A stretch of DNA of 58,212 nt, counting the filler, from Stramenopiles sp. TOSAG23-6 (Eukaryota), in the NCBI GenBank assembly GCA_900128565.1. It is 8 parts of 8 records of this genome, joined end to end, with 100 filler letters (N's around TTAATTAATTAA, not from the genome) between each part and the next. Parts side by side here need not be neighbours in the genome. Positions count along the whole stretch, not along the records: positions 1 to 7,208 come from LT636593.1; positions 7,309 to 14,511 come from LT636594.1; positions 14,612 to 21,814 come from LT636595.1; positions 21,915 to 29,110 come from LT636596.1; positions 29,211 to 36,397 come from LT636597.1; positions 36,498 to 43,683 come from LT636598.1; positions 43,784 to 50,960 come from LT636599.1; positions 51,061 to 58,212 come from LT636600.1. One strand, written 5' to 3'. Below are positions 9 through 58,159 of this stretch, piece by piece (the first letter of the stretch is position 1; each line of letters starts with the position of its first letter). The translations under genes were made by a program, and so were the position numbers. Under the pieces are notes generated by a model, which worked only from the letters and a program-made list of their open reading frames with translations, was not told where the DNA came from and made no database searches.

Positions 9-3000
9 ATGACTACTATGACTACTACTTCTTCTAGTAGTGTTGCTGCTGCTTCTAGTAGTAGAAGTTCTTCAACTGCCTCTCATGATATTGCTGCTTC
101 TAGTAGTAGTAGTTCTTCAACTGCCTCTCATGATATTGCTGCTTCTAGTAGTAGTAGTTCTTCAGCTTCTAGTAGTAGTAGTTCTAGTATTGCTAATGCT
201 AGTGTTGCTAATGCTAGTGGTGGTGGTGGTGGTGCAAGTGTGTCTACTACGACTAAAAAAAAGACTGAATCAAGTGAAGAGGAAGAAGAAGATCTTTGGC
301 AAGGAATATATATCTGTAATGGAAGAAAAAAGCTTTATCAAATCGCGAGAGAAGTAGGAGTCTCATATAAAGATTTAATTAAACACAATCAAGGTTTGAA
401 TTTACAAAGAAGTTCAGGAATGAAGCTGAGAACTCGTCTTTGGATTCCTAAAGACAAAGAAAAGAGTAAGAAAAAGTCAATCGGAATGAGTCAAGCGCAA
501 GAAGACGAAATCAAAANACAAATTTCGGAAATTGAAGNGAATAAAAAATTACAAATTCAACGTGAAGAGGAACAGACAAATNCAATGAAGGCAGATTTTT
601 CTCGACAACGTTCANTGATNTACCAAAAGCATNCAGAAAAAATTAAAAAACATGAAACGGGTGCAACAAATTATTTTTCAAGTCAATTCACAAATGAAAA
701 ACAAAAACTTTCATNGGNTCACAGACGCGAGGTTGAACAATTTGAAAAAACAAAGAAAGAATTACTACAAAACATACGATCTTCTTTGGATGCGGCATAT
801 AAAAAATGTTTGAGTGAAAAAANAACATTACAATCACAATTTGAGAAANAAAAGAAGACATTGGNAGAGAGTCATCAAAAAGACGTACTGAAAAAGAAGG
901 AACATCATTCTGCTATTGTTATGGAACTAGTACAAAAAANGCATGATCTTGAAACACAAATTATTAACGCCAAGTCCAAAGTGGTAGAAGATACAGAAAA
1001 GATTCAAAAACTTATGGCAGCAAAGAAAGNTCTCGATGAGAAATATGAAGTTGATAAGAATGCAATNGTACAATCAATCAAAGACAGTGAAGGTAAATAT
1101 ATCGCTGATGTAAAAGCATTGGAAGGANAACTTTCTAAAGTCAAGGNAGAGATTCAAGAATGTTTGAACAAAAAACAAATCAGTGAAGAACAATTAAAAA
1201 GTGAANAGCAAAGTATCGATCAACAACGTTCTGAATTAACTTCTAAACATNAAAANGAAATGGNTCAACAGTCTGAGGAACATCAGAGNATAATATCAAA
1301 AGGAGTTNAAAAATCTAAAGATGNGTTGCTTAANGATCATAAGCTTGAACTGAAAAAATTTNATGAAAACGTANAAAGAGAAATTTCTAAATTACAAAAC
1401 TCATTTCAACAATTTGATGAATCAAAATTAAACAGACTGAAACAACAATTACAACAACAATTAAAAAAAAAACTAGAAAAAGAAAAACGTAAAAGTCGTA
1501 AAAGAAGAAAAGATACTAGTAAACCAACTAGTACTGATTTGCGTCGGAATGTCCGTAGAGCAGTTCGTGGTTCTAATAAACAACAAAACCCCCCTTCCAA
1601 AGAAACCCGAATTGGTACAGAATACCAAGCCCGAATTGGTACAGAATACCAAGCGCAAGTTCCTCCTCTAGGTCATCCAACCCCAATGGAAGAGTCTGAA
1701 ACTTCCGTTGAATTCAGGCAAAACATTTCAAAAAGGATTCAAGATATTGAAATCCGTGCAAAACAAATGAAAGATCAATGGTTACCTTTGAGTGCAACTG
1801 AAAAAAAAGCAAAACAAAGGCGAGACCGAAGGCGACATGCNGCACATTTAAAAAAAGAATACGGAAGAAAGCAAATAAACCAAATTGAAATGATTAAAAA
1901 TCTTAAAAGAAAACGAGAACTAAGTACATCAAAAAAGAGAGCAAACGATAAAAGATCGAAAAAACAAAAAAAGAAAAAAGGACAAAATACGCCGTCTTCT
2001 GTACCACCTGTTGCACCTCGTAGAACTGCTCAATCTGTACCACCTGTGGCACCTCGTAGAACTGCTCAATCTAGTACACAGTATGTACACAATACTTCTG
2101 GATCATTTCATTTAAATGCAAAAGTATTTGCAAATTTCAAAGGTCAAGGAATATTTTTTCCAGGAAAAATTGTTAAAATTCATTCTGATGGAACATTTGA
2201 TATTCGATATGATGATCGTGATTTTGAATCTAATGTACATGAAACAAACATACAGTACCAGCTTCAAGAAGGTTCAAAAGTATTTGCATATTATCAAGGG
2301 GAAAGTATAATTTATCCTGCGCAAATTAAGAAAGTACTTCGTAATAATTCATATACTATTATTTATGACGATGATGGAATACAAGAATCTTTACCCGCAC
2401 ACTTGATGTATGTTTTATTTTTTTTCAATTTTTTGTCTACATTGCTTTTTCATACGAAATTTTGTATCTAACGATTGTTTTTTGAAATATTTTTCATAAT
2501 ACATACGCATTGGTAAATGCATTAAAGATATTGACGAAGAATCATTTGATTTTGTATTTGCTGAAACGCAAGGTAAATTTTCTATTGGTTCAATATCAAA
2601 GGCTCAGAAGACTGGCAGAGATTTTTTATATGATATTAAATATGATAAAGATGAAATTGAAGACGAACAAAACGTTCTGTCAAATAAGATACGTATTCCT
2701 GTACCTATATCATCACTTCGATATCAAGATATTCATCTATATCCTGATATAAAAGTAATGACAGCAACATCTACTACATTGAGTGAAGAGGGAAGATCTG
2801 CAAGCCATCATTCTCCAAATGGAGGTGGAAAAGGTGGAGGTAGAGGTGGAAAAGGTGGAGGTAGAGGTGGAAAAGGTAAAGGAAGAAGTAGAGGTAGAGG
2901 TAGAGGCATCCAAGGTAGTGTATACCATGGGTATCCTCAACAATCAGCATCATCAACAACACAATTACATCCATTACCAACCTTGGAAGAGTTTCACAGT

Positions 3001-3798
3001 GCAAGAGCAGAACTGCTTCGTCTTCAAGAAACACCNCNATTTAAAACGAAAGTCAAAGTTGTGAAAATACACAACAAACGAAATTCTTTNGGTCTTCGTG
3101 CAACTAAACAAATTANGAAAGGTGAAACAATTGCTTTTTATAATGTGAAATTATTTGATACTAAAGATTCTAAAGATTTACATCCTGAATTGAAGAGTTT
3201 TAATGTTGACCCTCATGATGATGTGTTGGATCCATCGATGTCTTCCATTGATTTAGAAGGANTAATGTATGTCCAAGATATCACAAAATCGGGAAATGCA
3301 TGGAACAAAAACATTTCGTATTCTGGAGCTTTNGCCAATGAACCCAATCCTCACGAGGTACCAAATGCTGAATTGTTTTATGGCCATCATCAACGAAAGA
3401 AAAAACGATTGAGAAAACATGGTATTTTACGATATGAACTTCATGCATCACGAGATATTAAAATTGGTGAAGAAGTGTTGTGGTGTTATAAAGGTAATTA
3501 TCAGAGAGATTACGAGACTCCATGCAGTGGATTTATTTCACCAGCAGCCCGAGATATTGATGAAACAATGTATACATTGGAAGACAGAAAAGCACTCGTT
3601 GGTTATCAAGTCACATCTCCCGCAGGTGCTTTAGTTCATCAATATAATCNTGGTAAAGAAGGATTGGGTTTAGACACTTGGATCATTCGAAATCCAGTGG
3701 ATAAAAGAGAAAATGTTCTTCAGTTGAAGCAATTACTTTCTGTATTAAAACATGATGAAAANAGCCAAGCAAAGTTTGAATCTGCAAAAATACATTAA
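9..3798 (+). CDS. LysM / coiled-coil / ELM2-like / 3x Tudor-like / RGG / SET-domain protein, join(9..2407,2505..3798), about 1230 aa; 5' end may be truncated
   Basis: LysM-like LYQIAREVGVSYKDLIKHNQGL; ELM2-like TRIGTEYQAQVPP; Tudor-like FFPGKIVKIHSDGTFDIRYDDRDFESNV; SET motifs GLRATKQI.KGETIAFY, ANEP, ASRDIKIGEEVLWCY...Y. Removing 2408..2504 joins ORF 9..2471 to the frame of ORF 2758..3798 through an open stretch encoding a third Tudor-like repeat. Confidence 0.8.
2408..2504 (+). other. Non-canonical GT-AT intron (97 nt, phase 2)
   Basis: TTG AT|GTATGT...CATACGAAATTTTGTATCTAAC...TTTTCATAATACAT|A CGC gives PAHL-I-RIGK in frame. Confidence 0.85.
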
Positions 3799-5199: not shown

Positions 5200-5289
5200 A
5201 TTATAGAGTATTTTTAGCATACAATTATTTTTTGAATCATAATAAATTGTTACAGTCCNTTTATTATTATANACTTTATACAAATACCA

Positions 5290-7308: not shown

Positions 7309-7363
7309 AGGTACGAAATTTCGTATGAAAAAAAAATAAATTAGAAATTCATATAAAACATAC
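7309..7363 (-). other. Family intron, 5' half (contig breaks in the branch-point motif)
   Basis: CTA CAA|GTATGT...TTTTCATACGAAATTTCGTACCT then contig end. Confidence 0.75.
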
Positions 7364-8639
7364 TTGTAGTAGGCATAAAAACAATATACCTACAAGCCTA
7401 CAGTATTGCCAAATATTGACATTCAATGTAGCATGAGTAGTATGTACAAAAATTTCATTAAATACATCATATCCAAGAGGTTTCCAAAAACTTAAAGTGA
7501 ATAAAAACGGCCCAATTAAACAAATATGAGTGATATATTTTGATAATTTTGAATTTGTCGATATTTGAATTCGTTTTTCTTCACTTTGACAAATAGTTGA
7601 AGGTATCAATATTGAAACGTAAGTCCTGGCAAAACGAAATGCAAAGAGAACAGTTACAAAAGACCACATTGAACATAGTAGAGAGACTGTAATAATGTAT
7701 TTTGCAAAAATATTTCAAAAACAATTTATTAGGTACAAAATTTCGTACGAAAACAAAATTCTAATTTGAAAAAAAATAAAACATACATGACATGCCATTT
7801 CAACGTTTCAGTATCGCTCAAATTTTCATGAGTTTTACTTTGTACCATGTATTGTGAAAAAAATGAGAAATTCGAAATTGGTGAAAAAATAGTACGTACG
7901 AAATTTTCTATGAAAAAAAAAATGTAGATAAAACATTTTGTAGGAAAAAAACCTACATTGATGAATTATTCAGAAAGCCATTTATCGCATATAAACTATT
8001 ATGTATATGTCTAGATAGGTCACTGGCGACGTAAAGCAAATTAAATTCGAGAAGATTCGCTGGGGCCACAGCAGATGCAAAAGAAAAGATAAAACCAAAA
8101 CATCCTGCAAAACTACACAAATAAAGGTTTCCTCTCTTTCCACTAAAAATAGGCAAAGAAAGTCTAAGGATAAGATATACACAGTAAACGATGAGAAAGA
8201 ATACAATGAGTATGAATGATTTGCCGTCCCCCTTAATAGTAAAAACATTGTGCAAAATACCGGAAAATAAGGCACACAATAACGTGACAGGGACAAGGTC
8301 AAATAGCAACTGATATTCATCTGAAAAAAATAGTCCATCGACTGTATTGGCATAAATACCTTTACGTTTGTCAAATTTGTAAAGATAGCTTGAATTTTCA
8401 CGAAGCAATTCCGCAACTCTGACAGGCAGTATGCTTTCTATTAGACGTTGCTTTTCGCCAATCGCTTTTTCTCTCTTGTGCACTGGTGGTAACATTTTCT
8501 CTAACTGAGCAGCTGATGGTGGCAAATAAAAACGTAATCCTTGTAAAAGCCAACTGGATAAAGAGAACACTGAAGAGACTTTTTGAAAAATCACCATTGT
8601 AACCGCGAATATAATTAATTCAGGAGGAAATAATGCCAT
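7364..8639 (-). CDS. TMEM161: TMEM161-family membrane protein, 3' partial; exons 8639..7957, 7846..7787, 7694..7364
   Basis: N-terminus MALFPPELIIFAVTMVIFQKVSSVFSLSSWLLQGLRFYLPPS and FFSDEYQLLFD resemble TMEM161; two GT-AT introns join three open exons. Confidence 0.75.
7695..7786 (-). other. Non-canonical GT-AT intron (92 nt, phase 2)
   Basis: GTC AT|GTATGT...TTTTCGTACGAAATTTTGTACCTAAT...GCAAAATACAT|T ATT ACA, in frame with ORF 7349..7669. Confidence 0.85.
7847..7956 (-). other. Non-canonical GT-AT intron (110 nt, phase 2)
   Basis: TCA AT|GTAGGT...CATAGAAAATTTCGTACGTAC...TTCACAATACAT|G GTA CAA, followed by an open 60-nt exon. Confidence 0.8.
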
Positions 8640-9028: not shown

Positions 9029-12000
9029 TTATCCAAATCTATTGAGGGTTTCTGTAATATGAAATGGTGCATATAATGCCATCTCATCTTCTTCGCTAAT
9101 GTCATCACCACTGTCTTCTACAAGCACCGTCTTAGTAAATGCTTTCTTTGCTACTTCAGGAGTCATAGCTAACCTTGCAAGACTTGATACCTGTGATTCT
9201 TCTGATGGCATATTGGGGTGCTTTCGTATTGGTGAATCTATGCCAAGTTTTGGAGAATCAAGGTCGGATGTAGTGCGAGCCCTTGTTGATCGAGCACGGC
9301 AAAGCGCTGGGTACATTTGTAAAACAGCAGCATTAAATTGATTTAATACTTCTGTCTCATTTGCAAATTCGCCCGCACCATCTACACGAAAAGCACGTCT
9401 TATTTGTGGGGGCAACTCGTTTTGTTGTTTATTCCATACTTTAGAGAAAATGACAAACGCATCAGGATCATCCATAATCTGAGGAAATAGCTTCAACGTA
9501 GGATGGGATACGACTGGGTTGCCACCTGCGGCACCTAGTTGTTGAGCATCTGCGAGGACTGAATACGTGAGTTTCCGGTAAAGAAGAATACTAGGTAAAT
9601 ATTGAAGTGGTGCAAGAATCGTGTGTGGCAAATATTGTGAGTGTGCTTGAACCGTCCGTGAAAGTCGTTGAAATGGTGTAACTCGGAATCTAAAAAAGGT
9701 AGATTCTTTCTTCTTGGATGCACCAATTGCTCGTTTACCTGCCCGCCATCCATTCCGTCTAGACAAAATATCATCAGATGTTATTTCCACAGGAGCATGC
9801 AAAGTTCCACCCATACACTTTAATTTGAATTCTTTCTTATTTTCAAGTGCATTTAAATCTGATAATTTTACACGGCACCATCCACAGCTCATATCAAGTA
9901 TTCTTTGTTCTCCTTCACTGTCAGTTGTATCCATTTGTGCAGTTAGTTCAAAGATTATCCACATATGATCCCATGGAGATGAAGATTCAGCCATGTGGGG
10001 ACTTCTTGTCAATGGGGCGTCTGTTCTAAGTAGAAAAGAATTTTCACATCTAGAAGATCTAGTATTGAAAGACCAAATATCTTCTGTAACAGATCGCCAG
10101 TTGCATTCAACAATGTGCTGATTTCCGACATATTCTGCTGAACCAGTTTCACTGGCTTTAATATCTGCCCAAAGGCAACAACGTACCGTTCTTCTACGAA
10201 TCTTGTCTCTTCCTTCGTCATCTTCTGGCACAGGAACTCCTTTGGCATCAAGTAATTCAAAATGAACATTGACAAATTGATTACGCTCTAACTTTCGAGA
10301 CCATTGAATTGTTCTCTGTGGTAAACGTATTCCATGTGTACTATCACTCGGTGTATTGATTCGTGTTGTGTCTACACCACTTACATCTGCACTTTTACCG
10401 ACATCCGTAATATCTTCGAAATGTGTTCCGCATTCACGAGAAAATTTGGGCTCCAACATTACTGATAGCTTATGTTTTGGAAGGTTATCCAAATTTGTGA
10501 GCAAAGATCTTCGATAGGTCGATGGTAACCCTGATAAAGATTGAAGATATTGCAATGGATCTGGTAATGCACCTCTAGCAATCTTGCGAAAGGCGTTTTT
10601 ACGGAGTGTTGTGGCGAGACCACCATCATCTTCGCTATCTTCATCTTTGCCATCTCGAATGTATGTAAATATCCTACAAAAATCAAAGAAAGATATTTCA
10701 TTTTTCTTGTTTGGGTCAATGAATTTCATTACTGCTTTGGTCTCTCCATCACTCATATCAATTTTGAGATGTTTGCACATAAGATAAGTGACTTGAGACC
10801 TTGTCAATATACCATGTTTGTGTATATCAAAATCTACAAATGCTTGACGAAAAGATTCATATGTAGCTGGTTTCACTGATGTTTGTTCGTCCATCTCATT
10901 TCTAATGAATTGAAAAAATTCATCAAATTCAATACTACCACTTTTGTTTGAATCAAGAGAAGCGATAATTACTTTTATCTCATCCTCTGTTGGATCGCGA
11001 CCCAATGCTCGCAAGCAATGACCCAGCTCGTCGACGTCTAATGTTTTGCTGCCGTCCGCGTCAAGAAAATCAAAAGCTTTTCTACTTTCTATCAATAATC
11101 TTTTTGTGTATTCTTCCTCCATTTTGTTCAACTTCTTTGCAATATGTTTTGGTAGTTTACGTCGAGACGTTTTTTTCCCGTAAGCGCCACCTCCAGCTTT
11201 TCGAGTGTTTTTTATTTTTTGTGCTGTAACTTGAGCGGAGCGGATACTCTCCATCATCTCTACATAGTTTAGCTTGCCATTAGCTTCCTTGCTATATCTT
11301 TCTGTCAGCCCAAATAATTCACCAGAATTAAGAGGGATACCCCGTTGGGTAAAAACTTTTCTAAATGCTTCACGCGAAATCAAACCGGCACCTTTCGAAT
11401 CATACTCCTTGAAAAGCATTTCAAATGCACAATTTGACAGTCTCTCATAAACTACAATAATCGATAATAATTTTCTTTCGGTTCTATCAGTATCTGTATT
11501 TGGCTCGACAAATGCAACAAACTCAGAGAACTCTATACAGCCATCTCCATCGCGGTCAAACTTTGTAATTATCAATTTCTCCTCCGAAGGCAATAATTTG
11601 ACAAATTTTAATTTACGCAAAGAATCAGAAAATTCTTCGGGGGTCATTCGACCAGTACCATCTGTGTTAAATTCGTCAAACAAAGCACGAAGATCAAGTT
11701 TTTTGCCTTTTCCAAATCTTTTATTCATTTGCTTTGAATTATATTTCTTGAGTTCTAATCTAAGTCTATCAGCAACAACGTGAAGTTCTTCGTCATCCAA
11801 GTCTGAAGATGCAAATGCAACAAACTCATTATAGTCAACCGTGCCGGAACCATCGAAATCGAAACAATCAAGAAGTAATTCAGTTTCTTCATCGTCAATA
11901 TTCAAACGTAATCTACTAGTGATGCACTTTCGGAAATTCTTTCGAGAAACAAAACCCATTCCATCTATATCAAACTCTGCGAAGGCTGAAGCAAATGCAT

Positions 12001-29210: not shown

Positions 29211-29211
29211 C

Positions 29212-43644: not shown

Positions 43645-43683
43645 ATTTATTTTGGAAAAATATTTCAAAAAAAAATCGTTAGG
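43645..43683 (-). other. Family intron, 3' half ending AAT
   Basis: CCTAACGATTTTTTTTTGAAATATTTTTCCAAAATAAAT|GG GGT AAC. Confidence 0.78.
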
Positions 43684-43783: not shown

Positions 43784-44217
43784 AAGAAACATCCTTTCAC
43801 TATGATCATTCGCCATTATCAAGTCAACGGAGATTGAAGGATGGGGCGAAAAAAAAAACCAGGTCTCTAACAAACACGCCTGGTTCGAATGACTGCAATA
43901 CATCACAAATGTCAAGCCAACCTTGTGAGAAAGGAGGAGGGTCATTAATGGTGAAACTGTTAAATACTAAAAAACGATTTACTGAGACATGTCAAACTTC
44001 GACATCGACTGCATCATCGACTGCAACACCAACTGCATCACCAATAGCCACACCAACTGCATCACCAATAGCCACACCAACTGCATCACCAACTGCACAA
44101 CCAACAGCTACACCAACTGCACAACCAACTGCACAACCAACAGCCGCACCAACAGCCGCACCGACTGCAACACCAACAGCCGCACCAACAGCCGCACCGA
44201 CTGCAACACCAACTGCA
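43784..44217 (+). repeat. 434-bp direct terminal repeat of this contig, copy 1 (copy 2 at 50527..50960)
   Basis: Appears identical by eye at offset 6743; includes unique sequence plus PT repeats. Confidence 0.9.
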
Positions 44218-45932: not shown

Positions 45933-48379
45933 TTATAATTTTGTTTGACGTAGATATTTTCTTTGGTAAAGCATAATAAAGTATACGACAATCATAACAC
46001 AAGAGACATCAATCAGAATAAACCATTGTAAAGGATTCCAATTGTGTTTTTCAATATTCAATGTTTTTACGAGGATAGATGAAACACTGCCTCGAATGGA
46101 AGTTCCTACTGTATTTTCTCAATATTTTGGTTTTACATTTGTTAGGTACGGAATTTTTATACAAAAAAAAAAAAAAATGAAATGAATGATGAAAATTTAC
46201 ATTGAGACATTGACAAAAATATCGCATAAAAAACTGATATTGGAATACTTTGTGTTTCATTACTATTTGTTTTTGCATCGCTACAAGGTAAAATTCCATC
46301 ATTGAATATTCGATTTGTATCCAAATTATAATTCAAAAGCAAAGCTTCATTATTATAATTATTATAATTATCATTATTATCATTATTATCATTATTATAA
46401 TTATCATTATTATCATTATTATAATTACTATTGATCATATTATTATAATTACTATTGGTTATATTATTATCATTATTATAATTATTATTATTATCAGTAT
46501 TATAATTACTATTAGTAGTAGTATCATTCTTTTCATTGTCGTTTGTTGACATTTTATTCGACCATATAGTAGCAAACACCACAGTTGGAACGAGAGCCAA
46601 TTGAGAAGCAACACTACATATCCAACTAACTCCAATCAAATACGATTCAACACTAATAAAAAATCTACGAAATTTTTCACTTGATGTAATTGCTGGAATG
46701 TACAATAGCCGAAGACTTGAAACAATAATTGATGTTATCCCTATAAATAAAAGTGTTGTTTGACTATCCATTTTTTGAGAACATTTGTTTTGAAGAAATA
46801 TTTCAATTCTTTATTTTTGAAAAATGTAGAATATAAAAACAATTAAAAATCGTCGGAATAGGTATGAAACATAAACACAAANAAAAAATAAAAAAAAACA
46901 CAAATAAAAATAAAAAAAAACGTACAGGTATTCATAAATATGATAAAAATAAAAAAAAACACAAATAAAAAAAAACGTACATGTATTCATAAATATAATA
47001 CTTCCAAGCATTGCACCAAGAGAATTAGCCACGCCAAGTTTCTGTATTGAACAAGTTGAATTAGCAGATGCCCAAAGAGAGTCCACAAAGTAAGAATATA
47101 AAGTATCACTTGACGAAGGAGTTGCATTAATTAATATTAAGACTATAGACGGAAATGTTAGTTGCCGAATTAAAATTTTAAAATTGTGTAGAAAAGAAAA
47201 CACTTTTGGTTGATTTATAGTATTATTATTATTATGAATAGTATCATGTGCTATAGTATTATTATTATGAAGAGTATCATGTGCTATAGTATTATTATTA
47301 TTATGAATAGTATCATGTGCTATAGTATTATTATTATTATGAAGAGTATCATGTGCTATAGTATTGTAATCATCCAACAATGCTATTGTATTTGTATTTG
47401 TTTTTAGAGGTGTAGATAGTGTAGATAAAACAGCACTATCACTTTTTCCAAAAGCAAATTGTAGTTTTCTATATATATATCTCCATGAACAAAATGTTGA
47501 AAGAATAATAATAAAACCGAGTACAAATAGTACAATGAAAAGACCTAAAATATACAAATGATAAAATTGGCCTTTTGTTCCTTGTGATAAAATTCCAAAA
47601 TTTACAACAAGTAAAATAACTTCTACAATAAATACAAAGACTCCAACACAACCAGCTATTTTTTTTCGATCGATTTGATTAAGATGCGAACCATCATTGT
47701 ATATATTTTCATTCGTTTTCACATTATTGTATATATTTTCATTCGTTTTCAAATTGTGTATAGATAATTCTGGGAGATATGATGCTACATATGTAGATAT
47801 AAGTGGTATGAGTGCAGTATATGCAATAAATTGACGAGGTTGAACATTATCACTACAATATAATGGTAACATTGCTAGTGTACAAGTAACTGTTCCGAAC
47901 GATCGAATGCTCGAAGCTCCACTTTGCAAGACAGTAGCACTATATGAATCACTTATATTGTTTTTAATTTTACTATGTCTAGATACAATATCAACTAATG
48001 TTGCATCAAGTAACAGTTCTGAAAAAGCATTAAATGTTTCATTAACGACTTTCACGACAAAAGCACTACAAATAGACGTGACAAAAAAACCTGTAAGTGC
48101 GTAACAAATACAAGAACCAAAACTGCAGATTATAATATACGATTTACGGTGGTATCCAAAAATAGGAAAACGATGAGACAGCCATGCATAGAATGGTTTT
48201 AGTGACCATGGAATCAGTCCTGCAGTATAATATAAAACGACAACTTCAGGAGACATGGACAACTCTTTATTGATCCAATGTGTATAGGCAGACATTGGGA
48301 ATGCTAGTTCCCAAGTATTCAGTAAATACAGAAGGGCTAAGGGTAAAGGAATGAGCGATGCCCCATAAAAACATTTCAT
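45933..48379 (-). CDS. BT1 folate/biopterin transporter family (MFS); exons 48379..46981, 46782..46201, 46108..45933
   Basis: IPWSLKPFYAWLS..FPIFGYHRKSY, AFSELLLDATLV, NATPS; the spliced C-terminus FYAIFLSMSQ-L-GTSIRGSVSSILVKTLNI...W..L..FILI is not in the ORF track. Confidence 0.85.
46109..46200 (-). other. Canonical GT-AG member of the same intron family (92 nt, phase 1)
   Basis: CAA T|GTAAAT...AAAAATTCCGTACCTAAC...GAGAAAATACAG|TA GGA. Confidence 0.82.
46783..46980 (-). other. Non-canonical GT-AT intron (198 nt, ends AAT, phase 1)
   Basis: ACA T|GTACGT...TTTCATACCTA...GAAATATTTCTTCAAAACAAAT|GT TCT CAA AAA ATG. Confidence 0.75.
47213..47367 (-). repeat. Coding minisatellite (N)nTIAHDT[L/I]H x4 in a BT1 loop
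   Basis: 36-39-bp tandem units. Confidence 0.85.
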
Positions 48380-49019: not shown

Positions 49020-50960
49020 ATGTTCGTTTTTGGATTTTCTAAACACCATTCGAAAAAGAGAAATTACACAACGGACCATGAAACAAAGGCAACCAAACAA
49101 GTAAACCCTATTGCTATTGGTATAGCTTCAAAAGATAAAGAACCGAAATCAAATGTGACGCTACCAGTAACCCAAAATGAAAAATCATCGTCAGATTGTC
49201 CGCAAGATCTGAGTAAAGCATCTACTTGTATACTATGGTCAATATTCAAGGATGCCATCGGGCCAACGAACGCTGTACGCGCATTTGATGTAATACTTGT
49301 ATTTTCAGAAATGTTGATATATGCTCAATTTTGGCCTGTTGCTATTATTTTTGCTAATTTGCTACACAAAGAATTTGCTAGTGGAAACTTGGAATTCCAA
49401 GGTCCAGTAAGAACGACACCTCTCATTGCATACACTTTTCTGTTTTTATCTGCAAATGTTATCTTACAAGTTCACTTTCAATACTGGTCATATCAACGTG
49501 GACAATGCTTTAAGAGAATCGCCAAGCCAATTATTTTATATGAAATCGACGCGTCAGATGAGGAACTTTTGATGTCAGCAACTGATGATATTAATAAAAC
49601 ACAACACACGTGTTTTTGTCTATTTCCACATTGTGTACAATCTGTTGTTGTAATTATAACCTTGTTGATTTTTGTGTATTTTCGAAACTGGGAATTTATG
49701 CTATATCTTTTATGTTTAGTAATTATTATGATTGTTCTTTCAATTCTATCAACAAGAAGTACAATGAAACATAATGAAGAACTTTTGAGGTTAGTATCAA
49801 GTATGAATGGTGAAAATGAAACTATGTATGGTGAAAATGAAACTATGAATGCTGAAAATGAAACTATCAATGTAGAAAATATGTCACCTGATGAGCAGTA
49901 CTTTTTATCATTGGCAACGCAACAGCATCCAAACATATATCAACTTTTGATATCTGTAGTTGAAGTTGTATCCTTGCCTGTATCATTTCACGTAACTGAG
50001 TATATAATTGACGATAATGAGAGGATGTTTGACTCTATGCTTGAAGATATACTTTGTTATGGCGCTGTTATCTATAATGCAAATGCATTTACTACATCAT
50101 TGGATAGAATTATCAAGAATTCAATTGTAATGCGGCGGGTTCGAAAATTATATCAAAAAAGTAAAGACAAAGTGCAAAATATTCCAAAGAATGATAAAAC
50201 AACTTGTAAGAAACAGATTATTTACACTTTTGTAATTTTAATATTACTCGTTCCTGTGGGAGCTTTGGTATACTACATCTTGAGTCTTCATATATGTGAT
50301 GAGAATATCAAAGTTAAATGCACATATGAAAGTATTGATGAAAGTAAGATTGTAAATACTAGGTGTGATTCTATAACAGTTACTCAAAAGTTTAATATTG
50401 ACAATACTCTATGCCAACTGGATTTAAGTCAATCAGAGATACTTGAAAAATGTAGAGAAAGCTGTAACGTAACAGTTGACACAAAAGTTATTGCAGCTGT
50501 TGAAAATACCATTGGTTTAAAACTACAAGAAACATCCTTTCACTATGATCATTCGCCATTATCAAGTCAACGGAGATTGAAGGATGGGGCGAAAAAAAAA
50601 ACCAGGTCTCTAACAAACACGCCTGGTTCGAATGACTGCAATACATCACAAATGTCAAGCCAACCTTGTGAGAAAGGAGGAGGGTCATTAATGGTGAAAC
50701 TGTTAAATACTAAAAAACGATTTACTGAGACATGTCAAACTTCGACATCGACTGCATCATCGACTGCAACACCAACTGCATCACCAATAGCCACACCAAC
50801 TGCATCACCAATAGCCACACCAACTGCATCACCAACTGCACAACCAACAGCTACACCAACTGCACAACCAACTGCACAACCAACAGCCGCACCAACAGCC
50901 GCACCGACTGCAACACCAACAGCCGCACCAACAGCCGCACCGACTGCAACACCAACTGCA
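49020..50960 (+). CDS. Multi-pass membrane protein with a Cys-containing region and PT repeats, 3' partial (may continue at 44218 if the contig is circular or tandem)
   Basis: Several hydrophobic segments, then RRL and TPTA repeats; the last 434 nt equal the contig start. Confidence 0.7.
50527..50960 (+). repeat. 434-bp direct terminal repeat, copy 2
   Basis: Matches 43784..44217. Confidence 0.9.
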
Positions 50961-51060: not shown

Positions 51061-51061
51061 G

Positions 51062-52003
51062 TGGACATGGTGTAAGTGGCGAGGTACCTTTCATATATTG
51101 TTACGAGAGGAAGATTCTAAAACTCATGCCATTGATAAAGACACCTGGAATATCGAACAAGAAACAAAGGCTAAAGAACACGCTTGTTATGTACTACATA
51201 AAACCCTGGTGATATCGGTGAATCGACAATTGTGGTCAGCTTGGTCAACTTGGAGGGGGACCTTTTATATATCAAAAACCCAAGAAATAGAACTAGTAGC
51301 GCAAGCAAAGAAAGATGAGCTTCAAAAAAAACACGCTTCAAAACTCATTTATAGAAGTTTACTCGTGATTTCTCAGCTACGGTTATGGCGTGCATGGAGT
51401 TCATGGAGGAACAAGTTTCATTTGTGCAATATAGAAATCGAAACTAAGATATACAACAAGAAAACGAAAGAACAATCATTACATATCCTTGGACTTGTCT
51501 TGAGGCGTTTTTTACATATGAAAATGAGCAAAAGCTTTAGATCGTGGGTGCTCAGTTTGTATCGTGATGATATTGTGTGGTGTTCTATGGCAAGTAAACG
51601 TACATGTATAGCACATGTTGACCGTATATTGAATCATTGGCTTGATCGTGTTACATCCAACGCATGGAATACATGGAAATTATATTGTACTTCATTAGCG
51701 ATTGAAAGTCAAGTGGAATACCGATTTGGCAGCCGGCATATGTTATATACGGCTTGTCACTTCCAAAAATCTTACATTAAGTTGTTTCTAATTGCGGCGT
51801 GGCGGACATGGCGCTTGAAAATTGGTAAACATCAGCCATGGAACTATGCAATTTCAATCTCTTCCTCTGATATTTCGGATTCATTATCAAATGATGAAGT
51901 GGAAGTATCAGATGAAGAATGGGAAGAACGCGAAAATTTGCGAAGGACATCGATTCTTAAGATAGATGAAAGAGTTGAGATGGCATTACAATGTTTACAA
52001 TAA
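51062..52003 (+). CDS. Sfi1-like repeat protein (putative centrin-binding), 5' partial
   Basis: Periodic L..AW..W[RK] motifs (LWSAWSTWR, LWRAWSSWR, MSKSFRSWV, TSNAWNTWK, IAAWRTWR). Confidence 0.6.
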   Translation, partial: WTWCKWRGTFHILLREEDSKTHAIDKDTWNIEQETKAKEHACYVLHKTLVISVNRQLWSAWSTWRGTFYISKTQEIELVAQAKKDELQKKHASKLIYRSLLVISQLRLWRAWSSWRNKFHLCNIEIETKIYNKKTKEQSLHILGLVLRRFLHMKMSKSFRSWVLSLYRDDIVWCSMASKRTCIAHVDRILNHWLDRVTSNAWNTWKLYCTSLAIESQVEYRFGSRHMLYTACHFQKSYIKLFLIAAWRTWRLKIGKHQPWNYAISISSSDISDSLSNDEVEVSDEEWEERENLRRTSILKIDERVEMALQCLQ

Positions 52004-52150
52004 AGTTTGTGTATTTTCTAAAAATTAATATATAGACAAAATACTACAATAAATATATGAAATTACCAAGACAGTCTGGTTACATCTGAGACTGATAGGT
52101 TGAAACGTAAGGAATATTATTACAATAAATTTAGGTAACATTTACTGAAT

Positions 52151-55100
52151 TTATTGTTTTGCGTTTTCTGCTTTTTCCCTAGCAATTTGACGCTTTGTTC
52201 GCTTTCCACGAGTTACTACTAAATGATTATTTGTCTTTGTCGGACCAGGAGTTCGCTTTCTCTTTTTCTTCATTTTCTCTTTTTTAAGCTTTTTTATTGA
52301 GAGAGTCTGTGTTTGTACACCTCCAACAACATTCTTTTTACCTACGGTTTCCTTCATAACATGTCTACCATTTGCTTCTTTATTAGCATCATTATCATCA
52401 TTAGCATCATTTGTGTTTTTACTACTCTTTTCTTCTACGTCGCTTTTGATTACACTTTCCGGTTCTCCTTCTACACCATCGGTCATCGCAGATAAGGTGT
52501 ATTCCACAAGACAAGCAGTTTGACAAAGTTGAGAAATACGCTTAAAATGACGCTGAGAATATGCTAATTGGGCTTCGGCGATGGAGTTTATTCCAGGTAC
52601 AGTAGCTAGTCGATCATGAGGAACATTTTGGAGTACAAATTGGATAACTTGCTGTGCCAATGCGCTGTGTCGAGAATTCATATTCCAATCTCGGGCATAT
52701 TTCAACAACCGATATAAGTACTCTTCTTTATTGTCATCTTCTTCTTCCTCGACATCCTCATGATTTTCAATTTCGGAATCCAAAATATGACCGTACTTAT
52801 CAGTCTTAGCAGACGGTTCCAATATAGTGCTCGTAGCGCCACCACCTGCCGATGGCGTGACACAATCTTTACCAACTTTATCAGGAGATTTAGCTATTAC
52901 CTTTGGACGTATATTGATGAGAGTATTCAGAGCCATATGAAATCGTTTTTGGCTTGCTATAATCTGTTTATCATTGTTACTTCTAGATTTTTCCACATAA
53001 CTTTGTTCAGCAGCAGCTGCCATCATTATATCCAATAAGTTACGCAATTGCTGAGGTTTATCCAATTCCAGAGCCATTTTCGCAGCTCGGAGATTTTTCT
53101 TTTTATAGACTAAAGTCATCAACTTCTGCTCTTGAAGCAATTCTTCTTCTCTTTCTTTNACTACATTATCATCTTCTTCAATTGTACAGTCTTCCCACAC
53201 TTTTAGAGATGAATCAGCACCACCGGTAATGATTTTTTTTCCATTTTTTGAAATATCCAATGCCCAAATTTTATCATCGTGAGCTTCAAAGGTGTTTGCA
53301 CATTCGTTAGTTTTAAGAGTCCATAATTTCATGAGTCCATCTGCACCAGTAGAAACAATTTGCATACCAGCATTGAAAAATTTAACTCGCAAAACAGAAG
53401 AGGTGTGTCCTTCGAATGTCGCAATACAAGGGTACTGCCCTTGCATTGACCAAACTTTAACAGTTCGATCGGCGCTACCGGATACAAGACAACGGTCAAT
53501 CGGGGAGAATTGAGCCGCCCAAATACCACGTTTGTGTCCTTTTAAAGTAGCAAGTGATTCACCTCTTTCAATGCACCATATTTTAATACTTTTATCCTGA
53601 GATGCAGACGCTATAATTTTATCGTTTGGAGCAACTGTGATTGCATTAATATCTTTTTCATGGGCGATTTGATTGAACATTGTATTTAATTTCAAAACAT
53701 TATTGAAAACGTCGACTTCCGTAGGTGTTTTCGTAATGCCATTCTTTACATTTTCCCTTAATTTCCTTAATTTATCCATTTTATCTTGTTGAGATATAAC
53801 AGATCTCAAATCCCATAATTTTAGGGTTAAATCTTTACTTCCAGTAGATAACCAGGCACTCGAACTAGATACGCTTGTGATTCGCGAAGGAAACGATACT
53901 GCACCTACTGCATCTGTATGACCTTCACATATTGCCACACAACGTCTTGAGAAAACATCCCACACCCGTGCTGAGTGATCTTTCGATGATGTCGCTACTA
54001 ATCGACCACAAGGTGAAACTGAGACTGCGAGCACAACATCACTATGACCACTTAATAAAGCACAGTCAAATGTATCAGATGACAAGATTCGTGCATTTAC
54101 ACTATTAGTTGCCATAACAATCATGTTTGATTGTGTTTTGGGATTAGGATTAGGGTTAGGTGGAATCATCTTTATATCAATAATTTCATCATTAAAACCA
54201 ACAAATTGCTTTTTCAAATCCAATGATGGTAACTGCAGATCATTAGGGATAGGGTTAACAGCCGCGGGTTTGATATCCATTGACATAAACATTTGATCTG
54301 AAGTGACTACAACAATTTCGGCTGCGTTTGTACGACAGAATAAATTAGTATATTCTACTTTATATTTTCTTTTTCTCTGATTTTTTTCACTTTTGTTGTC
54401 AGATTCATTCATAATCATTTTACATCTCCACCTGGCACCTTCAGGATATAAAGACCACACTTTTAGTATGCCTTTTTCACCCGCAGTGACAAATTGAATG
54501 TCTCGTTTTTTTGTCTTTTTTTTGTCAGAGATTTGCTTAAGGTTAGGGTTAGGAGGTAGCACATGTATACCTTCGAGAACTTCATACATTGGTACAGTTT
54601 TAAGTAACGAAAAGTCACGAAGGTTCCATACATTTACAACTTTATCGCGACCAGCAGTAAGCATGGTATATCCATCATTAGAGAATCCAAGAGATGTGAC
54701 TGAGCTCATGTGAGAACGCAAGACAGCGACACATTTGTAAGTGACGAGGTCCCAAATTCTTACGGTGCAATCATCAGAACAAGTAAAAAGTTGGAGGCGT
54801 CCTGCTATAGGATGAAATTTTACAAGGGATATGATTCCAGAATGTCCAACAAATTTATGAGTACAGTGTCCCTTGGCGAAATCATGCACTAGAACAACTT
54901 TATCTGATCCACCAGTTGCAATAAGTGTTCCACTTGGATCAAAATCCATAGAAAGTGCTGGACTTTTATGTGCTTTGAAACTGTTTGTACATTTCTTTTC
55001 AACTAAATCCCAAGAACGTATCAATAAATTGCGACTCGCAGTCACTAACTCACGATTATTTGGACTTAATGCAAATGTCATTAATTCTTCAGCTTCCACT

Positions 55101-55303
55101 GCCTTGTCCATGGCCTTAATAGACTGAGTAACTAGGCCCGTGTTCCAATCTAATAGTTTCACGTCTAAGTTGCATTGAGAGGCCAAGAATTCTTCATTAT
55201 TAGATACCTCGACTTTACCACCAGTATATGCAGATACATGCTGTTTTTGTATACGCCAAGATCGAGACAGACCTTTGTCTTTGACCTTGGTTAAATGCGA
55301 CAT
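52151..55303 (-). CDS. TBL3: U3 snoRNP WD40 protein UTP13/TBL3; probable start MSHLTK at 55303
   Basis: YTGGKV, GHCTHKFVGHSG, GFNDEIIDI, AHEKDIN, LKGHKRGIW, AHDDKIWAL, EQKL, WNMNSRHSALAQQV, YSQRHFKRI. Confidence 0.92.
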   Translation of the reverse strand: MSHLTKVKDKGLSRSWRIQKQHVSAYTGGKVEVSNNEEFLASQCNLDVKLLDWNTGLVTQSIKAMDKAVEAEELMTFALSPNNRELVTASRNLLIRSWDLVEKKCTNSFKAHKSPALSMDFDPSGTLIATGGSDKVVLVHDFAKGHCTHKFVGHSGIISLVKFHPIAGRLQLFTCSDDCTVRIWDLVTYKCVAVLRSHMSSVTSLGFSNDGYTMLTAGRDKVVNVWNLRDFSLLKTVPMYEVLEGIHVLPPNPNLKQISDKKKTKKRDIQFVTAGEKGILKVWSLYPEGARWRCKMIMNESDNKSEKNQRKRKYKVEYTNLFCRTNAAEIVVVTSDQMFMSMDIKPAAVNPIPNDLQLPSLDLKKQFVGFNDEIIDIKMIPPNPNPNPKTQSNMIVMATNSVNARILSSDTFDCALLSGHSDVVLAVSVSPCGRLVATSSKDHSARVWDVFSRRCVAICEGHTDAVGAVSFPSRITSVSSSSAWLSTGSKDLTLKLWDLRSVISQQDKMDKLRKLRENVKNGITKTPTEVDVFNNVLKLNTMFNQIAHEKDINAITVAPNDKIIASASQDKSIKIWCIERGESLATLKGHKRGIWAAQFSPIDRCLVSGSADRTVKVWSMQGQYPCIATFEGHTSSVLRVKFFNAGMQIVSTGADGLMKLWTLKTNECANTFEAHDDKIWALDISKNGKKIITGGADSSLKVWEDCTIEEDDNVXKEREEELLQEQKLMTLVYKKKNLRAAKMALELDKPQQLRNLLDIMMAAAAEQSYVEKSRSNNDKQIIASQKRFHMALNTLINIRPKVIAKSPDKVGKDCVTPSAGGGATSTILEPSAKTDKYGHILDSEIENHEDVEEEEDDNKEEYLYRLLKYARDWNMNSRHSALAQQVIQFVLQNVPHDRLATVPGINSIAEAQLAYSQRHFKRISQLCQTACLVEYTLSAMTDGVEGEPESVIKSDVEEKSSKNTNDANDDNDANKEANGRHVMKETVGKKNVVGGVQTQTLSIKKLKKEKMKKKRKRTPGPTKTNNHLVVTRGKRTKRQIAREKAENAKQ

Positions 55304-55553
55304 TTGGTCTCTGAAGTAGTTGCAAAATCTTTCAATTACGACTACTATGCTAAGTTGTGTGTGCGTTGTTTTCACTTTGGTTTCACTGACTATTTCTGGT
55401 TTCAGAAACACGAAATATAGCCGAAATATATAAAAAAAATCCTAACCGTTGTTTTTTAGGATCTCATCATCATCTCATATCTCGAAATCTCAAACTCAAA
55501 CACACGCTTTTTTCATCTTGTTTTGGCCCTAGGTTACATTGTTAATTTAAAAG

Positions 55554-55940
55554 ATGGCTGCCCCACAAAGTATGTGGAAGAAAGGTCTATTTGGATGTTG
55601 TGATCTTGGGATAGAACAGATCCTTTGTTTATTAATGTGTGCTCCCTGCGCGTATGGAAAGGTAATGGAGCGCCTCCAGATTGGGTCGTGTCTTGGTTGT
55701 TGCATTGGTGGTTTCTGCTGTTCGTGCTGCAACAGAGGTAAAATACGAACCATATACAATATAGCCGAAGAGCCTAGTGACTCCGTAGCTTGCCTATGTT
55801 GTCCTTGTGCCTTCTTACAGGAAATGCAAGAAGTAAAGATCAAAGAGCAGCTCAAATTTGGATTATTCGGTGCGATAACAAAGGAAAATGGTCAACCATT
55901 AGAACCACCAAAGGCAGTATTTTCTGGTTTTTCACGTTAA
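55554..55940 (+). CDS. PLAC8-family Cys-rich protein
   Basis: WKKGLFGCC, CAPCAYG, RGKIRTIYNI, CLCCPCAFLQEMQEV. Confidence 0.88.
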   Translation: MAAPQSMWKKGLFGCCDLGIEQILCLLMCAPCAYGKVMERLQIGSCLGCCIGGFCCSCCNRGKIRTIYNIAEEPSDSVACLCCPCAFLQEMQEVKIKEQLKFGLFGAITKENGQPLEPPKAVFSGFSR

Positions 55941-56259
55941 AGATATTTTTTTGATTATTTCCTAGCTCGGAATTGGTGAATTTTTAATAGCGCTTTATTT
56001 ATTTCATGGAGAATTCAATATAAAGCCTCTGAAGCGAACCAAATTTTTTCTCATATTTTACTGTTTTATATTTTTTATTGAACCCTAACCCTAGAATGAA
56101 AAGTGAACATTCGTCAGTTCATTCAAAAACCGAGCCGAGCTCGCCTCGACACAACAGAAATTGACATATATCGATAAAATTTAATTCATGAACTGTGTCT
56201 GCTGATAGGTAGCTATCTAGAGTCGCTACTACAATTAGAGCTATCTACTGTAGTTACGT

Positions 56260-56480
56260 GTGAGTGCACAGGCATTAGCTATCCTGTTCGATTCTCTGGA
56301 AGCTAATAAAAATGAGGACTCTGTGACTGATAGTATTAGAACTATGACGGGTTGCTGTCCAGGAACTTGTCGCTGTTGCCAGTGCATGAGTTCAAATGTG
56401 AGTGCACAGGCATTAGCTCTCGTGGTCGATTCTCTGGGAGCTAAAGAAAAGAGTGACTCTGTAAGTGCCAATAGCCTATT
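56260..56480 (+). repeat. Diverged 138-bp-period duplication at the sulfotransferase 5' end
   Basis: GTGAGTGCACAGGCATTAGCT...CGATTCTCTGG.AGCTAA...GACTCTGT at 56260 and 56398. Confidence 0.75.
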
Positions 56481-58159
56481 ATCATTAATTTCAGATATCA
56501 AAGAAACACAAAATAGGCATTCAAAGGCTAAGCAATACTCTACTATACATTTGAACGAAGAAATTTCAATTGAAAAAATGTTGAAAAAAGCTAAATCTGA
56601 GGTTTGGCAAGAGGGCTATGACCCCTGGGCTTTTTTTCCACGTGATTTTGAGCGTTTTCTTGTTACAGGAAATTTCCCTTCTTGGAAGACTCTTACGGCC
56701 ACTACGCCTCCAATTGCAAATAAAAGCTTTGACGTTGATATGTGTTTTATTATAGGCTGTGGTCGTTCTGGAACAACTCTTTTAGCTTCATTGTACGTTG
56801 TCCACTTTCAATTTCAATTTTTTTACATTTTCGTACGAAATTTCATACCTAACAAAAAAAATCAAAAAAAAAATATATTTTTTCACAATGCTTACTATCG
56901 ATGTGGAAAAAAGTTCTTTTTATAAATGAACCAAGACTTCTTTGGCTCTCTGCAGGCTTCCCAGAAATAGATGTATGGTCAACTTTATCAAACAAAAGAC
57001 GAGGTCGCTTGCAATTTTTGCCATGTTTAACATCAAGAAATCTTGTTGCAATTGATAAGCTAAAAATGATATATCAAAATGTTGTGACTGCTGCGAACTC
57101 CAACCATAACCCCAACCCTAGTAATGACTCACCAGTGAGAAGGATGATTGTAGAAAAATTCCCTGAGCATTCCTTTCGAGTGCCGTTTCTGTCAAAATGT
57201 TTCCCTCAAGGATATGTCATCGTTATGCTAATTTTACCTATTTTTTTGTTTTTACCGAATTGTTTTTTCGTTTTTTCATACGAAAATTTGTACCTAACAA
57301 AAAAATCAAATTTGACATATTTTTTCACAATGTATACGGTTTATTCATATAATCAGATCTCCCATGAAGGTTATTCGTTCAATATCTAAATTTTCATCAT
57401 TTGCCTGGTATGTAGGTTTTTTCAAAATTTCATTTTTTGGTAGTATATTTCGTACCTGACAAGAAAAATCAAATTTTTAAAATTTTCTTCAAATATCTTT
57501 TTTTTACATTTCAAAATTTCATTTTTTTTTCGCCTAAGAATTTTCTATACATATCAAATTGTAAATGTAATATATTTTTCACAACGCATGGAGCGACAAA
57601 CAAAAAGTGGCAAGAATTGCGTCTTCTAGCACTGACTTTTGGTTTCTCTGAATCAGATGTATGTTTTAGGGTTAGGGTTATTTTCGATTTTTTTTTCGTA
57701 CGAAATTTTGTACCTAACGAAGATACATTTTTTTTAAACGAAAAAAAAAAATATTTTCCTAAAATAAATCTCTCTCGCCTTGAATCTGAAGCTTCGAATA
57801 GAGGTAAGGCAGAGGTCGAATGGACCGTATCGATACTCTCAATTTTGCGACAGTTCAACCAGTTCAACGTCATACAAAATGAAAACTCTAACCCTACATA
57901 TTTTTTTTTGAAATACGAAGATTTAATTACCAAACCTATAGAGACTATGAACAAAGTTGCTACATTTTTAGGCTTGCTAAAGCCTAATGAGGAAATTATT
58001 CATCAAATTCAAGCCTTTATTTATAACCCAAATTCTTCAAATACAAAAATGAAACAAACAATCCCTGAAGGTTCAGTGTGTCATATATACAAGAATATAT
58101 ACAAGAGAGAGTGGCATCGATTAACGTTACAAGTGATGAAAACGTTTGGATATTGTTGA
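56386..58159 (+). CDS. P-loop sulfotransferase; exons 56386(or 56344)..56792, 56894..57211, 57336..57411, 57590..57658, 57770..58159
   Basis: Spliced GCGRSGTTLLAS-L-LSMWKKVLFINEP, VEKFP, FPQ-G-RFIHIIRSP..VIRS, LKYEDLITKP..TM.KV..FLGL, M..FGY. Confidence 0.85.
56793..56893 (+). other. Non-canonical GT-TT intron (101 nt, phase 2)
   Basis: TCA TT|GTACGT...TTTTCGTACGAAATTTCATACCTAAC...TTCACAATGCTT|A CTA TCG; the intron contains no AG. Confidence 0.82.
57212..57335 (+). other. Probable AT-AT intron (124 nt, donor ATATGT, phase 2)
   Basis: CAA GG|ATATGT...TTTTCATACGAAAATTTGTACCTAAC...TTCACAATGTAT|A CGG gives FPQGRFIHIIRSP; exact donor uncertain. Confidence 0.65.
57412..57589 (+). other. Non-canonical GT-AT intron (178 nt, phase 0)
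   Basis: TGG TAT|GTAGGT...TTTCGTACCTGAC...TTCACAACGCAT|GGA GCG. Confidence 0.75.
57659..57769 (+). other. Non-canonical GT-AT intron (111 nt, ends AAT, phase 0) with (TTAGGG)2
   Basis: TCA GAT|GTATGTTTTAGGGTTAGGGTT...TTTCGTACGAAATTTTGTACCTAAC...CCTAAAATAAAT|CTC TCT. Confidence 0.78.

Follow-up and report, generated by a model that had tools for sequence, protein, structure and literature searches.

Introner-like introns ending in AT on eight contigs of Stramenopiles sp. TOSAG23-6, and how their 3′ ends might be chosen

Introduction

Can an intron with an ordinary donor end in something other than AG, and how would such an end be found? The question is raised by a 58,212-nucleotide (nt) stretch of DNA (hereafter the window) from Stramenopiles sp. 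TOSAG23-6 (GenBank assembly GCA_900128565.1), in which a preliminary description, made from the sequence alone, had drawn 18 complete introns, most of them beginning with GT and ending in AT or TT. Few features of eukaryotic gene expression are as constant as the terminal G of introns, which the catalytic centre reads directly during the second step of splicing. Here, the 18 intervals are described as members of one family of short, introner-like repeats, and the ways in which they might be removed are weighed.

The window consists of eight contigs joined by linkers (i.e., 44 N's, 12 nt and 44 N's), has a G+C content of ~33%, and yields open frames of up to 2127 codons with the standard genetic code. 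Contigs from public sequencing runs were placed on positions 51061-58212, a region with four of the introns. The runs include X1 (the probable source run) and X3 (an independent seawater metagenome from 2024), and two metatranscriptomes (X6 and X8, both with small shares).

Results

Introns with a non-AG end

The sequence attributed to the intervals was confirmed in all 18 cases. The terminal dinucleotide is AT in 15 of them, TT in two (45067-45325 and 56793-56893) and AG in one (46109-46200), and the final three bases read CAT (11), TAT (2), AAT (2), CTT (2) or CAG (1). At the 5′ end, 17 start with GT as part of a GTAxGT donor, while 57212-57335 begins with ATATGT as drawn, so that its 5′ boundary is uncertain. 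The intervals have a G+C content of 0.20, vs. 0.335 in their flanks.

Reading frames were scored by moving the 3′ cut around its given position and requiring 30 stop-free codons on each side. At the given cut, excision left at least 30 such codons on both sides in 18/18 introns, with the open exons beside them extending over 32 to 150 codons. Displacing the cut by 3 or 6 nt in either direction kept the frame in 17–18 introns, and any other shift did so in only 1–4. Retention would bring an in-frame stop into 14 introns and a frameshift into two more, with only 22369-22461 and 57659-57769 being readable through. The intervals are, in other words, real intervening sequences with a non-AG 3′ end in 17 of 18 cases, and the observation of introns ending in AT or TT is confirmed. 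From the earlier claim that 17 introns restore the frame when cut after a terminal T, the non-AG ends (17/18) and the frame (18/18) were upheld, with the correction that in 12/18 the cut can slide by up to 2 nt.

Sequence conservation has sharp limits, setting in at G+1 and stopping at T–1, while exon positions from +2 onwards are random. Among 19 donor ends, G+1 was found in 17, T+2 in 18, A+3 in 19, G+5 in 17 and T+6 in 18; among 24 acceptor ends, C–3 was found in 18, A–2 in 21, T–1 in 22, and a G as first exon base in 14. The intron end CAT|G matches the canonical CAG|G except at its last base. These splice-like signals are near-invariant although the family copies have a median pairwise identity of only 0.60 (maximum 0.87). 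The lone AG member (46109-46200, ..AATACAG) occupies the same alignment columns as the copies ending in ..AATACAT and restores the frame at the same cut, so that the 3′ boundary of the family is calibrated by the canonical rule.

The first exon base after the intron is a purine in 15/18 cases. Moreover, at 12/18 junctions the upstream exon ends in the same two bases as the intron (AT/AT in 11, TT/TT in one), and AT is in excess at exon ends (P ~6e-9 vs. an AT background of 0.095 in five long coding regions). This direct repeat is absent from the other six, among them 22369-22461, 22851-22946, 26588-26708 and 45067-45325.

Junctions compared with homologues

Two of the junctions could be compared with a homologue residue by residue. 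P0121 (EukProt g2967.t1), a 580-residue Cys-tRNA synthetase, is 60% identical to the 48-residue exon 21617-21760, and the three synthetase exons, joined by script, align to its residues 302-578 without a gap across either of two junctions. The 21507-21616 junction lies within a gapless, strongly conserved block (the exon ends in ..WCLQH and the next one starts with KYSSD..), and the alignment score was 464 at the proposed acceptor, 453 at –3 and 448 at +3. For 20965-21057, the score was 464 at the proposed cut, vs. 455 (–3) and 458 (+3). On this alignment, the junctions of both synthetase introns are fixed to the residue. For no other intron-bearing gene was a near relative found besides P0121.

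Beginning with its first residue, the exon that follows the partial copy at 21761-21814 can be aligned to the solved structure of a Cys-tRNA ligase (9yru), in the KMSKS region. Per-exon Pfam scans gave coarse colinearity only. In the TMEM161AB-like gene, two introns separate the matches to profile positions 2-207 and 231-326, which follow each other in order; in the sulfotransferase-like gene, exon 1 ends with the P-loop and exon 5 matches profile positions 152-215. The latter exon was without a match in two protein searches, and exon 21060-21506 was without a match in the PDB.

One repeat family

Fourteen copies align over their full length, sharing GTAxGT, T-runs, (C/A)GTACGAAATTTTGTACCTAAC, a spacer and TTGAAATATTTTTC(C/A)AAATACAT. 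The 17-nt core GAAATTTTGTACCTAAC occurs 23 times in the window with at most 3 mismatches, vs. 0.4 times expected from shuffles. When a profile built from the 14 copies was searched over all eight contigs, copies or fragments were matched on each of them, in agreement with the preliminary description, which had recognised the introns as such but had missed that they form one transposon-like repeat family. Six of the 16 contig ends fall inside a family copy, which is what a high-copy repeat that breaks the assembly would produce. In X1, the contig depth summed over the core at 57683-57720 was 485,709, vs. ~12.7 in neighbouring single-copy bins, and in X3 it was 27,504 vs. ~7; such a depth, which is a sum and not a copy number, means that related copies number in the thousands.

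All 18 complete copies are in sense orientation, as are four of the six copies at contig ends (those with an adjoining frame in view). An inverted core survives only inside another intron (45104-45137, within 45067-45325), and family fragments of mixed orientation occur only in the non-coding region 24570-26095, where the last fragment ends in ..CACAATACAT and adjoins the first ATG of the next frame. The long members (44674-44852, 45067-45325, 46783-46980 and 57412-57589) are composite or internally duplicated. The 2-nt junction repeat resembles a small target duplication, and the GTAT/ATAC termini, at only 4 bp, resemble a short transposon inverted repeat; no autonomous partner was seen. A 22-nt family core had no match in public genome contigs, and the 17-nt core matched 6 viral and 64 metagenome loci among public contigs, all of them chance matches outside any family context.

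Some further traits of the family were seen. Its core starts with a perfect 10-nt palindrome, TTCGTACGAA (e.g., at 57685-57694), and the 24 cores listed include two subfamilies, with CGTACGAA (10) and CATACGAA (9). A hairpin GUACGA/UUGUAC beside the branch motif was considered and rejected, as the matching double change was present in only 2/9 copies with the A variant. Intron density is very uneven, small genes carrying 2–4 family copies and three very long coding stretches carrying none (29212-35547, 2112 codons; 9029-14511, 1827 codons; 36498-43678, >2300 codons).

Splice signals

The U2-like donor, the CTAAC motif and the T-tract that had been pointed out earlier were recovered, and so was the absence of a U12 donor (positions +5 and +6 being G and T rather than C and C). 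A branch-type motif was found in 16/18 introns (CTAAC in 12, CTAAT or CTGAC in two, and a GTAC-type motif in two), 15 of which end in T. The distance from this motif to the intron end is 33–52 nt in 14/16, and 79 and 130 nt in two long introns. A T-run occupies positions –16 to –12 in 19–23 of 24 ends. A donor with U1/U6-complementary extension, a branch motif (in U2-type introns CTRAY, 18–50 nt from the end) and a pyrimidine tract are all present, as in U2-type introns, but a YAG end provided by the first AG after the branch is not, since only 1/18 introns ends in AG. Screening against Rfam revealed no RNA genes in the window, small nuclear RNAs included.

The terminal hexamer AUACAU is the complement of exon AU plus GUAU. 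In minimum-free-energy folds, the intron ends paired in 11/18 cases, in varying register and with a helix of 4–6 bp, and the fold energies were unremarkable (z –1.9 to +1.6 vs. shuffles). No covariation was seen at the variable +4 base.

The branch motif CCTAAC is a permutation of the C-strand unit of telomere-type repeats. TTAGGG in two to three copies (≤1 mismatch) occurs 22 times across the window, vs. 0.06 expected, e.g., at 15639-15650, 24779-24790, 25108-25119, 25744-25761, 25997-26014, 26193-26204 (–), 26313-26324 (–), 26446-26463, 28819-28830, 54144-54161, 54537-54554 and 57666-57677. These repeats sit in introns, in non-coding DNA and in coding frames, where they read N-P-N-P-N or G-L-G-L-G.

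The intron sequence in independent DNA

A systematic G-to-T error, which the preliminary description had named as a possible source of the AT ends, was not borne out. Contigs from X3 cover 56860-57300, 57284-57696 and 57694-58212 with 6, 3 and 9 differences, respectively, and none of the differences listed, beyond which there are 36 further rows, falls at a terminal dinucleotide. As this independent metagenome carries the same intron sequence, the AT ends are not a G-to-T error.

Discussion

A U2-type reading and the points against it

The family appears to consist of introns that stem from one short mobile element and that are probably cut by the major (U2-type) spliceosome after C-A-U, an account which, from the sequence features above, we consider somewhat more probable than all others together. 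All copies would descend from one short non-autonomous element of ~95–120 nt, present in thousands of genomic copies, and each copy would bring its own signals, i.e., a strong GTAxGT donor that starts with the copy itself, the CTAAC-type branch motif, a tract rich in T and, at the very end, (A)ATACAT. We infer that removal takes place at the RNA level, from the donor G through the last T, which would restore the original coding sequence; the machine would most likely be the major spliceosome, branching at the CTAAC-type motif and joining exons after C-A-U rather than C-A-G. The end would be chosen by the extended terminal motif or by its pairing with the donor region. U2 is predicted to carry GUAGGUA, pairing with UACCUAAC, and U1 is predicted to pair with AU|GUAUGU.

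A number of observations weigh against this account. Counted from the branch A in the 16 introns scored, the terminal AT comes sixth among the ATs and third among the YATs (medians), and the interval from branch motif to intron end contains an AG in 7/16 of them, or in 6/15 of those ending in T, so that the splicing machine would have to ignore AG. With AT being too common in these AT-rich introns and AG occurring upstream, neither a first-AG nor a first-AT rule picks the end. The earlier proposal of a major spliceosome with a lost or relaxed terminal-G requirement is partly supported, in that the ends are non-AG (17/18), but a plain switch from AG to AT cannot define the end, and the longer terminal motif AAUACAU is the likeliest determinant, either by itself or through pairing with exon AU plus GUAU. 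Furthermore, 2-nt junction repeats typify transposon target duplications as well as non-spliceosomal "nonconventional" introns, and they make the 12 boundaries concerned ambiguous, since the cut can slide by up to 2 nt with an unchanged mRNA. The conservation of donor and branch motif could in part reflect common descent. Finally, the check by metatranscriptome that had been suggested for the junctions yielded, for the four introns in 51061-58212, neither a spliced junction nor a bridging contig in X6 or X8, and none of the 15 joints listed (of 121) is at an intron boundary. The RNA contigs cover only exon or intergenic pieces (51.1-55.8 kb and 57941-58097) and the repeated intron cores, the latter at a depth of 5167 vs. 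~3, which could stem from unspliced RNA, DNA carry-over or stable introns.

Other ways of removal

Several of these points would also suit removal of the same family without a spliceosome, as proposed for the euglenid "nonconventional" introns and discussed for the non-canonical introns of hemistasiids and Amoebophrya; paired ends would bring the junctions together, direct repeats would mark them, and the excised product would be a circle rather than a lariat. The direct repeats at 12/18 junctions, the complementarity of AUACAU to exon AU plus GUAU with its pairing in 11/18 folds, and the inability of either AG or AT to mark the end by scanning speak for this route, as do the purine-first exons (a purine is also wanted in the Euglena code described in PMC12501133), a similar offset between 5′ and 3′ spacers in Euglena (N3 vs. 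N5-6; PMC12501133), and the non-canonical introner ends with direct and inverted repeats that are described for Amoebophrya (PMC7789003). Nevertheless, the borders here are conserved and the introns have a perfect U1/U6-type GTAxGT, a T-tract and CTAAC, none of which belongs to nonconventional introns as described in the passages cited (PMC6221363, PMC11282704). The euglenid-type end structure would pair positions +4 to +6 with –8 to –6, and what the folds show is a short helix in varying register, of ordinary stability and lacking covariation at +4. The dynein heavy chain in the window also groups with sequences of the SAR (stramenopiles, alveolates and Rhizaria) type rather than with Euglenozoa. 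Altogether, we regard non-spliceosomal removal as unlikely. Translational bypassing and RNase III-type excision were set aside, the end helix of 4–6 bp being too short and other support being absent.

A different spliceosomal route would follow if the cuts were slid by 2 nt. Because 11/18 exons end in AT, these introns can be redrawn as ATGTATGT...ATAC with the same mRNA, i.e., as mostly AT..AC introns, for which a minor-type (U12-like) spliceosome or the rare U2-type AT-AC route would be responsible. Variation at the 3′ end is tolerated in U12-type introns, GT..AT termini being known as rare variants among them, and ACCTAAC presumably bears a loose resemblance to the U12 branch consensus. The U12 donor consensus is RTATCCTT, however, whereas the slid donor would become ATGTAT, which fits neither U12 nor U2, and the unslid GTAxGT is a perfect U2 donor. 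The branch motif of U12 introns lies ~10–20 nt from the 3′ end with no pyrimidine tract, a short and fixed distance that is absent here, where at least 33 nt and a T-tract intervene. With the remaining 7/18 introns not admitting an AT..AC drawing at all, this route receives very little credence. Ordinary GT-AG splicing at overlooked nearby sites fares worse still and is hardly credible. Some frame-keeping GT/GC-AG pair does exist within –45/+90 nt in 14/18 introns, but nearly all such pairs combine arbitrary weak donors with a loss of coding sequence, and for the other 4/18 the range contains no frame-preserving pair. If the conserved donor is kept, an in-frame AG follows within 90 nt in only 5/18 (one being the AG member itself), and other removed lengths worsen the fit to P0121 for both synthetase introns.

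The segments might, lastly, never be removed from RNA, and instead reflect pseudogenes, somatic DNA elimination as in ciliates, or assembly artefacts. The missing spliced RNA and the fragmentary assembly with its scattered N's are in line with this, but frame restoration in 18/18 and strict sense orientation are unexpected for dead insertions or for orientation-blind elimination, the flanking exons are open, and long frames exist under the standard code. Moreover, X3 contains the same intron-bearing sequence at the depth of its flanks. Eliminated sequences of the ciliate type are TA-bounded, orientation-blind and absent from somatic DNA, as opposed to the AT-type repeat, the sense-only orientation and the presence in all DNA runs compared that were found here. 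Altogether, this explanation seems improbable, and cutting by the major spliceosome after C-A-U remains the preferred reading.

Comparison with known systems

Introners derive from transposons, carry short duplications and inverted repeats, and normally have canonical splice sites (PMC11282704, PMC7789003). The present family likewise comprises many related copies over unlinked genes, in sense orientation and with frame restoration. In the accounts cited, introners of Micromonas, Aureococcus and other aquatic eukaryotes form hundreds to thousands of short, related genic copies (PMC11282704, PMC7789003), and they share with our family the sense orientation, the own splice signals, the lack of coding capacity and, apparently, the junction duplications and the short terminal inverted repeats. 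Unlike them, with their canonical sites (the Aureococcus motifs given in PMC7789003 included), 17/18 introns here end in T, and the repeat is only 2 nt long and absent in 6/18. A large introner survey is described as having dropped families with unfamiliar sites unless these were supported by RNA (PMC12130899).

The introners of the parasitic dinoflagellate Amoebophrya resemble the present ones in occurring in a marine SAR-type protist, in repeated families, with direct repeats over the exon-intron boundary and with terminal inverted repeats (PMC7789003). In that account, however, they have no preferred terminal dinucleotides, their inverted-repeat hairpins are 8–20 nt long and U1 was not detected (PMC7789003), as opposed to the uniform GT..AT ends, the U1-like donor and the inverted repeat of 4–6 nt found here. 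Non-GT-AG ends, junction direct repeats, a purine as the first base of the downstream exon and a suspected origin from miniature inverted-repeat transposable elements (MITEs) are shared with the nonconventional introns of euglenids and the non-canonical introns of hemistasiid diplonemids; as described, the latter two have neither conserved borders nor a U1-complementary donor nor a polypyrimidine tract, and they rely on extended pairing of their ends, in all of which they differ from the present family (PMC12621601, PMC12501133, PMC6221363). In the larvaceans Fritillaria and Oikopleura, introns that depart from the GT-AG rule, and that likely originated from MITEs, are believed to be handled by the major spliceosome (PMC12621601, PMC7789003, PMC11282704, PMC13326754). 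The larvacean variation is described mainly for the 5′ end, with AG-A(N) patterns (PMC7789003), while the present introns keep a canonical donor and deviate at their last base only. The family is probably a new, non-canonical variant of transposon-derived introns. No system of GT-AT introns or introners was found described in the literature searched; a 2016 single-cell diplonemid paper, outside this search, may describe comparable predicted introns.

A SAR-like rather than euglenozoan host is suggested, as a lead only, by gene comparisons. In a PDB ranking, the dynein fragment scored 937 bits with Chlamydomonas DHC2, ~860 bits with mammalian DNAH1 and at most 740 bits with chains carrying kinetoplastid-style names. 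Its best database relatives are 58–66% identical, the best named ones being from a brown alga (59%) and from Symbiodinium (54%). In a FastTree of this one gene, which carries no support values, it fell among SAR-type sequences. Moreover, strand switches occur within the 7-kb contigs here, in contrast to the long co-oriented gene clusters described for Diplonema (PMC10161547). The dynein ranking and tree, together with the strand switches, argue at the level of a lead against a euglenozoan host.

A broader proposal, which we rate at somewhat below an even chance, is that in a free-living marine SAR-like protist the 3′ rule of the major spliceosome has shifted from C-A-G to C-A-U for essentially all introns, with any AG between branch and end being ignored and the end being found by an extended motif or by donor pairing, and that this shift is tied to the spread of one introner family supplying nearly every intron seen. 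If true, a lineage with a textbook donor and branch site but a U end would be a natural experiment on the second step of splicing, and a mobile element would appear to have set the splicing rule of a genome. This bears on the question of whether relaxed spliceosomes came before or after introner invasions. In addition, standard gene finders, which expect GT-AG introns, will get every intron-containing gene wrong in this organism and in its relatives in ocean metagenomes.

Features of the window

Coordinates of the introns and of the partial family copies are collected in Table 1.

Table 1. Family introns, partial copies and related regions (positions along the window; strand "." where both orientations occur).
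Position	Strand	Ends	Length (nt)	Description
2408-2504	+	GT..AT	97	Family intron, phase 2; nhmmer E 2.9e-14
7309-7366	-			5′ half of family copy, cut by contig start; donor GTATGT at 7366
7695-7786	-	GT..AT	92	Family intron, TMEM161AB-like gene
7847-7956	-	GT..AT	110	Family intron, TMEM161AB-like gene
14612-14662	+			3′ half of family copy, cut by contig start; ends ..AAAATACAT, then open frame on + strand
15561-15659	-	GT..AT	99	Family intron; AG 5 nt before end, the use of which gives a frameshift
20965-21057	-	GT..AT	93	Family intron (..ATATAT), Cys-tRNA synthetase; junction checked against P0121
21507-21616	-	GT..AT	110	Family intron, Cys-tRNA synthetase; junction in gapless P0121 block
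21761-21814	-			3′ half of family copy, cut by contig end; next exon starts at KMSKS region, Cys-tRNA synthetase
21915-21980	+			3′ part of family copy, cut by contig start
22369-22461	+	GT..AT	93	Family intron; no direct repeat (exon ends TC)
22851-22946	+	GT..AT	96	Family intron
24570-26095	.			Non-coding; at least 8 family fragments in both orientations, mixed with TTAGGG repeats
26588-26708	+	GT..AT	121	Diverged family intron
36345-36397	-			3′ half of family copy, cut by contig end
43645-43683	-			3′ end of family copy (..AAAATAAAT), cut by contig end
44474-44582	+	GT..AT	109	Family intron
44674-44852	+	GT..AT	179	Longer, diverged intron; family profile matches part only
45067-45325	+	GT..TT	259	Composite intron; inverted family core at 45104-45137
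46109-46200	-	GT..AG	92	Sole AG member (..AATACAG), BT1-family transporter gene
46783-46980	-	GT..AT	198	Intron; tandem 55-nt duplication repeats the exon-intron junction
56793-56893	+	GT..TT	101	Family intron, sulfotransferase-like gene; exon ends TT (direct repeat)
57212-57335	+	AT..AT as drawn	124	Family intron; 5′ boundary uncertain
57412-57589	+	GT..AT	178	Intron; two partial family matches (57411-57490, 57513-57593)
57659-57769	+	GT..AT	111	Family intron; TTAGGG repeat just after donor

The 55-nt tandem duplication in the minus-strand gene spans 46888-46997 and offers two candidate donors (GTACGT twice).

Among the genes of the window, 29212-35547 encodes the axonemal dynein heavy chain, and 52151-55441 encodes, on the minus strand, a WD40-repeat protein of ~1096 codons; others are a BT1-family transporter, a TMEM161AB-like gene, a sulfotransferase-like gene and the Cys-tRNA synthetase. 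The first contig contains 67 single N's between 517 and 6706, far above the number in the other contigs, which may be ambiguous or heterozygous calls. On the seventh contig, the first 300 nt (43784-44083) are 100% identical to 50527-50826, near its end, and both copies are followed by a repeat with a period of 12 nt that codes for T-P-T-A; this arrangement may reflect either the tandem duplication of a gene or an assembly path that was circularised.

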